This document shows positions 2 to 3,236 of a DNA stretch of 22,016 nucleotides, piece by piece. The notes beneath the pieces are model-generated. The model was not told the origin of the DNA. It made no database searches and saw only the letters and a program-made list of their open reading frames with translations. The position numbers were made by a program, and so were the translations under genes. Source of the DNA: an uncultured archaeon (GTDB taxonomy: Archaea > Aenigmatarchaeota > Aenigmatarchaeia > GW2011-AR5); assembly GCA_964373695.1 (NCBI GenBank), contig CAYJVT010000013.1, forward strand, positions 1 through 22,016, given 5' to 3'. The stretch's first letter is position 1. Each line of letters starts with the position of its first letter.

Positions 2-1246
2 GTTTATTGGCTTTCTAATGAGTATAGGGTATTTATTTACCTTGAACACATCTTTCTTATTGTATAGAATATCTGCAAGACATATTATGCAATTCGTGTA
101 TTCCCTGCTATATTGATAATTCATCCCGTAATTATCAACATTATCTATAAGTATTTGAAATTCTTTTTTAATTATAGTAGAATCAATGCTGCTATTAGTG
201 ATTTTTTCAATATCTTTTATCTTTTTGTCTAAAGATAAAAATTTCTTATTCAAAAGATATAACTTTCTTTGTTTCAGTTCATTAGATAAATTCTCTATTA
301 GTTCTAAATAAGATCTGCTAAATTCATTATTTTTGTCTTTTGAAAATTTATCAAATTCGTTATAGAATACATCTTTTTCGTGTTGTTTAAAATTTCTTTT
401 TACCTTATTTTCCAAAACTTTAATCATATCTTCATAAGTAAAATTCTTTTTCCTATAGAGAATTATATTTTTGTTTATTTTTGATCTCATGAGCCTTTTC
501 TCAGTATCATTCATGCCAAAAAATCTGCTATGTATCGAGAAAGTTATGAATTGTTTTATACTACGTGAGATGTAGTCTTTACTTTTTTGGCTTGATAATC
601 CTTGTCCTTTACCTATAATTGGTTGCAATGGTTCCGTAACCATATAAATTTCTATAGGCTTTTGAAAAGTGTCGCTTTTTGGAAATGCCTCTATAACAAG
701 CTTTTTACTGGCGAAACTAATCGAAAAGCTAGTTGGCCAAAGTCCTATCCTCTTTGGCTTGAAGTAAATATTACCTTTATTTATTTTTTCTATGGTTTTC
801 TCTCTCTTAGTTCTTGCACGCTCAAGCTTCTCTAGTTCTTTTTGCCAATAATTCTGTGTATGAAATTTTGTTCTCAGAAATCCAGAAATTACATATTCTT
901 TTGGTCTAAAATTAGAAGGTTTTCCTGGGTATCTATCTTTTTTGCTTTCATCCCTTAACATTTCTGATATTGTCGTATATCTGTCTTGTATTTTTTCTAA
1001 TTCTTGTTCTTTCTGTTCTGCTTGTTTTTGCATAGCTCTTTTTAGGTCTTTTATGTCAGTTTCAGCTTGATTAAGTTGCGTCTTATTAAACCAAATGCCA
1101 TGAGAACTATCTTTTGGCGCTAGAGATTCTTTTGGGACACTTTTATAACTCATTCTTGTACAAATAGCTGCCCATTTGTTAAACATTTCGTCAAGAATTT
1201 GATATTGTTCTTCGGATGGCAATAGCCTTAATTTTAAGGCTTTCAT
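2..1246 (-). CDS. cas12f: Type V-F CRISPR effector, Cas14c/Cas12f3-like, N-terminal 415 aa (runs off the left edge; RuvC not in window)
   Basis: Hand translation from ATG at 1246 is open to position 2: MKALKLRLLPSEEQYQILDEMFNKWAAICTRMS...FNKTQLNQAETDIKDLKRAM...NFRPK...FKPKRIGLW...TEPLQPIIGK...HSRFFGMN...KYPILIRKPIN. These blocks match my recollection of Cas14c-type sequences. It starts 2 nt after the cas4 stop in a cas1-cas2-cas4 operon. It is absent from the ORF track, presumably because it has no stop in the window. Confidence 0.82.
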   Translation of the reverse strand, partial: MKALKLRLLPSEEQYQILDEMFNKWAAICTRMSYKSVPKESLAPKDSSHGIWFNKTQLNQAETDIKDLKRAMQKQAEQKEQELEKIQDRYTTISEMLRDESKKDRYPGKPSNFRPKEYVISGFLRTKFHTQNYWQKELEKLERARTKREKTIEKINKGNIYFKPKRIGLWPTSFSISFASKKLVIEAFPKSDTFQKPIEIYMVTEPLQPIIGKGQGLSSQKSKDYISRSIKQFITFSIHSRFFGMNDTEKRLMRSKINKNIILYRKKNFTYEDMIKVLENKVKRNFKQHEKDVFYNEFDKFSKDKNNEFSRSYLELIENLSNELKQRKLYLLNKKFLSLDKKIKDIEKITNSSIDSTIIKKEFQILIDNVDNYGMNYQYSREYTNCIICLADILYNKKDVFKVNKYPILIRKPIN

Positions 1247-1248
1247 TA

Positions 1249-1836
1249 TTAACTTCTCATGCAAATATTCTTAAAACAACAGTCTGTGCATCTTTTGACG
1301 AATTTTGTCGGCTTGGGGTTATGCTCTTGATAGATTATTTTTCCTATTTTTGAGAAAGTTTCTATTAAGTCGGCCTTATCGGCTTCGCTTATGAAGACCT
1401 TTATCAAATCCCCGGAACGCAAGAATTTTATATATCCATAAGGAACTTTATGCCCAAAAATTTCTTCTATAAGCATAGCTTCCATTACAATCTGTCTTTT
1501 CTGTGCCTTGTAAATTTTTCTCGGCGTAAAGCTGTATTTAGCCTGTATAGGATAAGCTTCTCCTTTCTCCTTGTTTATCAATATTGAATCTACTATAGTT
1601 TTCCAGCCCAATTTCTCAAAAACAAGATGAACCTTCAATATCTTAGGCAGTTTTGGATAACTCTTGACGATTTTTGTTCTTCTTGCCTTTGCCTGAAAAT
1701 CCACCTCTTTTTCCCTGCCTTTGTATTCTTTTTTTGTTGTGAACTGGGGTTTCCTCAGAACATGGACAAAATATATTATTCTTGGGCAATAACTGTAATT
1801 CATCAAATCCGTCGCCGTAAGGTATTGCTTCTCCAT
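1249..1836 (-). CDS. cas4: CRISPR-associated Cas4 (Fe-S RecB-like nuclease), 195 aa
   Basis: YCPR N-terminal Cys plus C-terminal CxxCx5C (CTDCCFKNIC) Fe-S ligands; motif II D (IVDSI). The likely start MEKQ at 1836 overlaps the cas2 stop (TGATG), rather than the track start at 1932. Confidence 0.9.
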   Translation of the reverse strand: MEKQYLTATDLMNYSYCPRIIYFVHVLRKPQFTTKKEYKGREKEVDFQAKARRTKIVKSYPKLPKILKVHLVFEKLGWKTIVDSILINKEKGEAYPIQAKYSFTPRKIYKAQKRQIVMEAMLIEEIFGHKVPYGYIKFLRSGDLIKVFISEADKADLIETFSKIGKIIYQEHNPKPTKFVKRCTDCCFKNICMRS

Positions 1837-2132
1837 CAGGCAGCACCGTTCAGGATGAGGAAGTCCCTCTTCTTTATGATTTCCTCGTCGAAATGACCCT
1901 CTATTATCCTGCCGCCGAAGCATACCTTGCATGTGGGAAAGATGAAGACGCAGTTTTCCGTCCCCTGAAGTATTTCCTTTATCTCAATTGAAAGCATGTC
2001 GAGCTTGTTCTTTGTTACGTTGCCAAGAAAGGCGCTCTTCTGCACCCTTTCGAGGCCGTAATCCTTGCATTTCGAGGCTATCCTTGAGCGCAGGTTATTT
2101 TCGGATATGTCATAAATAATCCAGTAAATCAT
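1836..2132 (-). CDS. cas2: CRISPR-associated endoribonuclease Cas2
   Basis: IIYDIS N-terminal motif, YGLERVQKSAFLG, 98 aa, located between cas1 and cas4. Confidence 0.95.
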   Translation of the reverse strand: MIYWIIYDISENNLRSRIASKCKDYGLERVQKSAFLGNVTKNKLDMLSIEIKEILQGTENCVFIFPTCKVCFGGRIIEGHFDEEIIKKRDFLILNGAA

Positions 2133-2136
2133 GGAA

Positions 2137-3153
2137 TCACCATTTATGGATGAAGGGCTTGTATTCGCTTTTCTCCCCCAGAAGGAACTTGGCTATCATC
2201 CTTGCCTGATGGAGCATTATTCTCTGAAGGCTTGCTTTCTTGTCCTTGTAGGTTATTTTTGTGTGGAGCCTTTCCATGACGGCCTCTATGACCTTTTCCC
2301 GGCCTTTTTTGCTCAGCATGAAGCAATTGCCAGATGTCTCGAAGTCGGAATCTTCCACTTTCTTCAGGGCAAAAAGCGTTATTATTGCCCTGTCGACAAC
2401 AGGCTGCCTGAACTCCTCTATCATGTCAAGAACCATGGAAGGCTTGCCGTACCTGTCGGTATGAAGGAAGCCAAGATAAGGGTCAAGACCGGCCAGAATG
2501 CACGACTTCTCAATCTCTGAATAAAGTATCCCGTAGCCGTAATTCAGCATCGCATTCACCGGGTCTTTTGCTTCATGCTCCCTCTGGCTGAAAGGCAGTA
2601 TCTGCGTCAGGCAGGCAAAATATTGGTTTCCCGCGTAACCTTCTATTCCCAGAATCTCCTCGCGCATTTCGTCAACTGTTCCGCTGATTGATTCAAGCTT
2701 TGTCAGAGAATTCAGCATCGAATCTGCGGTTTGACAGAAATCAACCTTTTCCCTTGTCTTACTGAGGGACTTGAGCAAATAAGCCTGGTTTTTCACTTTT
2801 GCCTCAACAAAAGCCTTTACAAGCTTTGGCGCTTTTTCGGTATTATATTGGGTCGCCTGGCTTCTTCTTGTAAGGGTTGTGCCGCCAAGCTTGCATGGAT
2901 AGACCCTTGCAACAGGCATCCCGTAGTAGTTTGTGTATACAATGTCTATGTTGCTTTCCATCGCCAGCTTTACGGCGTCCGTAGAAACAGAGGAAGCCGT
3001 TGAAATTATTATCTGCCTTACCTTGTCTGCAGAGAATTCCTTCTCGATTTCCGTTTCGCTATCGTCTTTGGGTTTCTTGGTCACGATAAATCTGTTTCCC
3101 TGCTTTCCCAAGAACATCCCATAATCGTCCAATATTATTTGCATGTAAAACAT
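2137..3153 (-). CDS. cas1: CRISPR-associated integrase Cas1 (alternative start 3144)
   Basis: LGIEGYAGNQYF, DPVNAMLNYGYGIL, GLDPYLGFLH and LDMIEEFR supply the catalytic E/H/acidic residues; 338 aa. Confidence 0.96.
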   Translation of the reverse strand: MFYMQIILDDYGMFLGKQGNRFIVTKKPKDDSETEIEKEFSADKVRQIIISTASSVSTDAVKLAMESNIDIVYTNYYGMPVARVYPCKLGGTTLTRRSQATQYNTEKAPKLVKAFVEAKVKNQAYLLKSLSKTREKVDFCQTADSMLNSLTKLESISGTVDEMREEILGIEGYAGNQYFACLTQILPFSQREHEAKDPVNAMLNYGYGILYSEIEKSCILAGLDPYLGFLHTDRYGKPSMVLDMIEEFRQPVVDRAIITLFALKKVEDSDFETSGNCFMLSKKGREKVIEAVMERLHTKITYKDKKASLQRIMLHQARMIAKFLLGEKSEYKPFIHKW

Positions 3154-3236
3154 ACACTACTTTTTAGTAATTTATTTAAGGACAATTACCTTCACTTACG
3201 TCTAATTCTTAAGTAATTTCAAGGCATCTTAACAAC
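3154..3236. promoter_or_regulatory. AT-rich divergent promoter region shared by the cas operon and mre11-rad50
   Basis: 83-nt AT-rich gap between two divergent starts, with TATA-like TTTATTTAAG near 3171-3180. Promoter function is inferred from position only. Confidence 0.5.

Follow-up and report, generated by a model that had tools for sequence, protein, structure and literature searches.

A probable 3'-truncated relic of a Cas12f2 (Cas14b) effector gene in the cas1-cas2-cas4 operon of a DPANN-type archaeon

The DNA analysed here (the window) is a stretch of 22,016 nt from an uncultured archaeon of the Aenigmatarchaeota. The minus-strand frame at 1246..2 is most probably the 5' part of a cas12f2 effector gene, the rest of which has been deleted, leaving the locus unable to carry out interference; we put the probability of this reading at about 85%. 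The effector relic is the last gene of a DPANN-type cas1-cas2-cas4-effector operon. On the combined evidence of frame, homology, junction and fold, the gene (2..1246, minus strand) is described as a 3'-truncated cas12f2 of the cas14b clade, of which the first 415 codons, encoding the WED/REC lobe only, are present.

The cas operon and its truncated last gene

Upstream of the relic, three apparently intact genes are arranged on the minus strand: cas1 (2137..3153, 338 aa; PF01867, E 7e-77; TIGR00287, 285 bits), cas2 (1836..2132, 98 aa; PF09827, E 1e-17; TIGR01573) and cas4 (1249..1836, 195 aa; PF01930, E 9e-11; TIGR00372, 83 bits against a cut-off of 65). The Pfam and NCBIfam assignments bear out the DPANN-type cas1-cas2-cas4-cas14 operon proposed in the preliminary description, and the same layout is common to the relatives' loci L013, L015, L036, L038, L040 and L041. 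An intergenic spacer at 3154..3236 (no strand), delimited by the ORF map and a step in GC content, separates cas1 from the divergent host mre11/rad50-like genes. Direct reading of the sequence places the cas4 stop codon TAA at 1251-1249 and, after a 2-base gap, the effector ATG at 1246-1244, exactly as first described. From MKALKL onwards, the ORF listing and translation give 415 codons without a stop, open past the window end, and all of the motifs quoted earlier are found in the translation (MKALKLRLLP, FNKTQLNQ, NFRPK, FKPKRIGLW, TEPLQ, HSRFFG and KYPILIRKP). Base 1 of the window is base 1 of the contig (C13), so the effector frame is cut by the contig end. The host genome (G000) comprises 1.02 Mb in 60 contigs and is 91% complete. 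Database proteins match the translated frame at E values of 1e-86 to 1e-202, and the frame is therefore not a chance one.

The continuation of the frame could be read from two Logan assemblies, ERR4904390 (locus L011) and ERR3478686. Both contain the same gene with an identical junction, encoding a product of 433 aa (P0002) that is 100% identical to the window frame across 415 aa. Contig C16 of the host genome abuts C13, with a 14-nt overlap at the C13 start, and L011 spans both contigs with one mismatch each. The relic frame meets a stop 18 codons past the window edge; these last codons and the stop (L011:5075-5131) lie on C16, and the 18 residues are unrelated to the family. The homology to the nearest intact relative, P0041, and to all other relatives stops exactly at N415, the end of the motif KYPILIRKPIN, about 30 residues ahead of the RuvC-I motif GIDRG of the relatives. 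Past KYPILIRKPIN, the intact relatives possess GIDRG, the RuvC-II E, the motif IDADLNAAR with the RuvC-III D, and a CxxC...C zinc ribbon, matching PF07282/PF01385. The 433-aa product has none of the RuvC-I D, RuvC-II E, RuvC-III D and CxxC...C zinc ribbon, and PF07282 (TNB), present in the intact relatives, was detected neither in the fragment nor in P0002.

The preliminary description had taken the frame for a hidden functional effector, with RuvC-I/II/III motifs and a zinc finger to be expected on leftward extension and a tracrRNA/anti-repeat region and a CRISPR array next to the gene. None of these is there: beyond N415 the frame soon stops, the tracrRNA region and array are missing from the locus, and the only arrays of the genome lie on another contig, C11. 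What came about is thus an early stop with no RuvC motifs, the very outcome that the description had named as speaking against it.

The missing part was sought throughout the genome. Searches of all 60 contigs with the Cas12f2 and PF07282 HMMs, and by tblastn with five C-terminal halves, did not find a C-terminal half, returning only unrelated ORFs on C11 or noise at E >= 0.2; a split gene was rejected on this ground. The protein database holds no close orphan C-terminal fragment, the best matches being 47-50% identical. One candidate for the missing half, P0049 (76% identity), was set aside as a contig-start fragment from another sample. The arrays of the intact relatives lie 270-460 nt downstream of the effector, but there is no CRISPR array in the window or on C16, and no repeats of the family type are left in the genome, where three repeat types, searched with <=9 mismatches, matched only the C11 arrays.

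Family assignment, intact relatives and predicted fold

Pfam search detected no domain in the 415-aa fragment or in P0002, and searching PDB sequences with the fragment gave no meaningful match, the solved Cas12f1 chains included. The sole NCBIfam family match of the fragment is the Cas12f2 model, a weak one (E 1.7e-5, 23.8 bits); the 450-bit cut-off of this model (NF049972) is missed by the fragment at 23.8 bits and also by the intact relatives at 130-165 bits. For the intact relatives, Cas12f2 is nevertheless the best-scoring curated model, and no other Cas12 subtype model matches even at E <= 10. They also score about 75-106 bits against the generic guided_TnpB model, as expected because they are Cas12f proteins. 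TnpB as the identity of the fragment was rejected: it has no RuvC or TNB domain, and its neighbours are cas genes, not tnpA.

The homologues are full-length type V-F effectors of 600-843 aa with Cas12f/TnpB RuvC and zinc-ribbon domains. The nearest intact relative, P0041, which is the closest intact protein among about 15 billion sequences, has 765 aa and shares 77% identity with the fragment over residues 1-415 with zero gaps, in line with the large ancestral protein of about 800 aa envisaged at the outset. Another member, P0009 (603 aa), is 42% identical to the fragment (E 5e-72) and agrees with AuCas12f2, that is Cas14b18, in length, over its opening 34 residues and at two internal 11-mers, as given in the supplement of PMC7229846. 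Three of five further P0009 motifs were not found in the text of that supplement, so the equation of P0009 with AuCas12f2 rests on the 34-residue N-terminus, the two 11-mers and the length. Because the sole curated Cas12 model match is Cas12f2 and the member P0009 corresponds to AuCas12f2, we assign the family, at the sequence level, to Cas12f2/Cas14b and not to Cas14c/Cas12f3. The earlier Cas14c/Cas12f3 label is thereby replaced by that of a family that includes the characterised AuCas12f2. In the nomenclature of PMC7229846, Cas12f2 corresponds to Cas14b and Cas12f3 to Cas14c/V-U2/U4; in the 2025 classification, the type VII effector is also named Cas14. Cas12f2 proteins cleave dsDNA in dependence on a T-rich PAM (Karvelis et al. 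2020, PMC7229846).

Compared to the described Cas12f2 systems of type V-F2 (AuCas12f2, and Mi1Cas12f2 and Mi2Cas12f2 from Micrarchaeota; PMC7229846), the locus has the same cas1-cas2-cas4-effector order in a DPANN host; however, the G000 copy is without RuvC, zinc ribbon, tracrRNA region and array, and its intact ancestor belonged to a subclade of larger proteins (765-843 aa), in which the REC and zinc-ribbon regions carry insertions. Cas12f3 (Cas14c, V-U2/U4) likewise belongs to the miniature type V-F effectors that derive from TnpB (PMC7229846), but nothing points to it as the home of the relic family, which has a named Cas14b member and matches the Cas12f2 model only.

The relatives were found in Micrarchaeota, Pacearchaeota and other uncultured archaea, and their CRISPR arrays, where the contig is long enough, have 37-nt repeats with a period of 73-74 nt. 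The long relatives P0041, P0006, P0023, P0043, P0044 and P0045 (701-843 aa) possess an insertion of ~80-110 residues in the zinc-ribbon region, and most of these six have an extended helical REC insertion too. As far as could be found, these 701-843-aa proteins form an uncharacterised large Cas12f2 subclade. In P0007, the frame carries a single in-frame TAG within the RuvC domain (L038:3558-3560) and continues normally after it; a nonsense mutation, an error in sequencing or read-through might each account for this.

The 415 residues were modelled confidently by AlphaFold, with a pLDDT of 89.9 and a pTM of 0.77. Foldseek of this model against the PDB returned nothing at E <= 0.001. A wider structural aligner gave whole-span matches only to the N-terminal WED/REC lobes of Cas12f, TnpB and related effectors, including AsCas12f (PDB 8dzj; Z 9.3, RMSD of 2.9 over 139 residues) and Un1Cas12f1 (PDB 7c7l; Z 7.6 over 143 residues). 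These scores are middling for a helical model, yet agree with the sequence evidence; the predicted resemblance to Cas12f N-terminal lobes answers the earlier call for a structure prediction. Homology and structural matches together uphold the earlier view of the frame as the N-terminal, WED/REC-side half of a Cas14-like type V-F effector. With respect to the structurally solved Cas12f1 proteins (Cas14a/Un1Cas12f1, AsCas12f), the model of the relic aligns over its whole span to their WED/REC lobes, and their chains are matched in sequence by the C-terminal halves of the relic's intact relatives at E 1e-14; by contrast, the fragment itself has no sequence-level match to them, and its helical REC region is much longer.

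An acquired island and its proposed deletion

The GC content is 0.46 in cas1/cas2, 0.36 in cas4 and 0.29 in the effector (falling from 0.33 to 0.25), compared to 0.49 for the genome; where the island gives way to the host genes, it rises from 0.29-0.46 to 0.53-0.57. The spacer at 3154..3236 marks where the acquired cas island ends on the left. Beyond it, mre11 shares 82% identity with its counterpart in the sister genome G001, in which no cas1 was found. The two genomes of the same genus (81% and 76% complete) likewise yielded no cas1 gene, and a search of 60 related genomes did not find the N-terminal effector family in any of them. The low GC content of the effector and cas4, the absence of the family from these 60 genomes and the failure to find a congeneric cas1 mark the island as foreign to the host. 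Cas1 and Cas2 are nearest to the GC-rich locus L015, and the effector is nearest to low-GC proteins of the P0003/L013 type. This incongruent similarity and the GC step suggest a mosaic of adaptation and effector modules.

Straight after the breakpoint lies a HicA fragment without start codon context, which covers profile positions 21-58 of 58, the C-terminal two-thirds; the downstream stub does not reach a full-length HicA domain. About 17 nt past the hicA stop starts a redoxin/Thioredoxin_10 host gene (DipZ-like; L011:5224-5973, corresponding to about 16086-16802 of C16). Compared to its 328-aa orthologue in G001, the G000 redoxin is without residues 1-89, which include the signal peptide and CxxC; ccdA and thioredoxin genes, located upstream of the intact redoxin in G001, are both absent from G000. 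In the intact locus L040, cas1-cas2-cas4-effector is followed, after 460 nt, by a CRISPR array with four repeats, an ORF of 68 aa and hicA, and the G000 HicA stub is 57% identical to the C-terminus of the L040 HicA. No mobile-element hallmarks were seen in the 10 kb beyond the junction.

Farther along, ~10 kb of ORFs without Pfam domains (L051:2191-12545; about 5.7-16 kb of C16) encode, among others, proteins of 882 and 683 aa and a ParA-like ATPase. This variable region, in which no mobile-element genes could be recognised, separates the redoxin gene from a 274-aa membrane-protein gene that is directly adjacent to it in G001.

We propose that an AT-rich cas1-cas2-cas4-cas12f island was horizontally acquired by a DPANN-type archaeon with a genome of ~1 Mb, and that the present structure goes back to one deletion reaching from effector codon 416 to a point within hicA. 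Its left breakpoint lies immediately past codon 415 (KYPILIRKPIN), and some 350 codons, for the second WED segment, RuvC-I/II/III and the zinc-ribbon TNB domain, would have been lost. By analogy with the intact relative, the loss probably extended over the tracrRNA region, the CRISPR array and a small hicB-like gene and took the 5' part of hicA as well. The frame now reads 18 unrelated codons before the stop. The 433-aa product would be a well-folding WED/REC lobe, presumably non-functional; with no nuclease, cognate guide RNA or array, interference would no longer be possible at the locus.

Adaptation genes and rival readings of the surviving frame

The adaptation genes of the island look intact at the level of their sequences. 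The invariant Cas1 columns E171, H231, D243 and E246 are conserved, as are, in common with three intact loci, four Cys and the D...QxK motif of Cas4; identities to the intact locus L015 are 59% for Cas1, 52% for Cas4 and 67% for Cas2. The Cas4 motif of the family is D...QxK, not the usual D...ExK, with Q invariant in all four loci (alignment A2). The window cas1 is the only cas1 match in the genome. On C11, at about 8.2-12.3 kb (L010:3239-7251), there are two tandem Cas12f/TnpB-like ORFs of 543 and 464 aa with weak Cas12f2/TNB matches, flanked by two small arrays with the repeat CTTGCAC...ATGGAAC. These arrays, the only ones in the genome, have no adaptation genes nearby; they consist of 37-nt repeats and 36-38-nt spacers, with a geometry as in the arrays of the effector family. 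A same-family genome, G007, has a cas1 gene beside a 567-aa Cas12f-like ORF (C35:4660-8218), the N-terminus of which lies outside the effector family; different V-F variants thus circulate in the lineage.

The persistence of the island might be explained, as a complement to the relic reading, if its cas1-cas2-cas4 supplied spacers in trans to the C11 arrays, a suggestion that we regard as tentative and rather unlikely. The sole cas1 of the genome and its sole arrays would then belong together, the conserved Cas1 and Cas4 motifs would be accounted for, the repeat/spacer geometry on C11 is that of arrays beside the adaptation modules of the family, and the GC content of cas1/cas2 (0.46) is near that of the host (0.49), unlike that of the effector (0.29). 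However, the C11 repeat agrees with the family repeats at no more than 14-18 of 37 positions, and the C11 arrays are tiny and partly degenerate, which is not suggestive of active acquisition.

Within codons 1-415, the relic has no stop, frameshift or indel compared to P0041. Private substitutions at conserved columns number 2 of 31, within the range of 0-5 of the intact members. Since there is neither an excess of private substitutions nor an indel, decay of the surviving frame is not demonstrated, only the loss of the C-terminal half; either the deletion is recent or the fragment is tolerated. A second truncated member, P0021 (L039:146-1642, ENA ERZ4902915), shares 33% identity with the relic and 59% with the intact 825-aa P0023. 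It is cut off, mid-contig, at a distance of three codons from that same KYPI..RKP.NK boundary and has a natural stop; the genes beyond it are unrelated and lie on the opposite strand. This truncation is independent of that in the G000 relic and might indicate that a short form is selected for. An A-rich tract begins at each of the two breakpoints, and a fragile site is therefore favoured over such selection.

The surviving frame has also to be weighed as a maintained, functional WED/REC-only protein of 433 aa, a nuclease-less RNA/DNA-binding module co-transcribed with cas1-cas2-cas4, with possible roles in spacer selection, regulation or partnering the C11 Cas12f-like proteins; both the module and these roles we consider improbable. 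The 415 codons have stayed intact in very AT-rich DNA with the family residues conserved, the predicted fold is a confident one, the start 2 nt past the cas4 stop implies co-transcription, and P0021 was independently truncated at nearly the same position. Yet the 18-residue tail is an unrelated read-through into the hicA remnant, as an accidental deletion predicts, the A-rich tracts offer a plausible fragile site, and no orthologue of the short form occurs in relatives, the N-terminal family being missing from all 60 related genomes mentioned above. To our knowledge, no Cas12f REC lobe has been found to function on its own. It is slightly less probable still that nuclease-less WED/REC derivatives of large Cas12f2 proteins arise repeatedly at one boundary, here and in P0021, and are kept as partners of Cas1-Cas2-Cas4; a role such as PAM-aware spacer capture feeding the C11 arrays would be equally doubtful.

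The contig break of the G000 assembly sits exactly at the junction, where the DNA has ~21-25% GC, and might stem from a second allele in a mixed population instead of low coverage. With an overlap of only 14 nt between C13 and C16, the short form could then be due to misassembly or to a deletion allele carried by a minority, and the real genome would carry an intact effector of ~765 aa. We judge this highly improbable, the least probable of the readings weighed here: two further assemblies from different runs have the identical junction, the contigs of a 91%-complete genome hold no C-terminal half, the protein database holds no close orphan of one, the closest intact protein known among the billions searched is only 77% identical, and GC as low as that at the break suffices for a drop in coverage.

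The truncated-relic reading places the locus among degenerate CRISPR-cas loci with orphan adaptation modules, with which it shares intact cas1/cas2/cas4, a disabled effector and no adjacent array; it differs from others in having a breakpoint located to codon precision and an intact relative, L040, that displays the likely ancestral layout. An apparent uncharacterised large Cas14c-type effector thus becomes the truncated relic of one from a family already characterised, Cas12f2/Cas14b, and the locus offers no new nuclease, PAM or tracrRNA. Instead, it documents to codon level the decay of a type V-F locus in a reduced DPANN genome. The only adaptation module of this genome is orphaned, a point of relevance to spacer acquisition by the separate Cas12f-like arrays on C11. 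The proper targets for effector discovery are the intact, uncharacterised relatives of 765-843 aa in other metagenomes.
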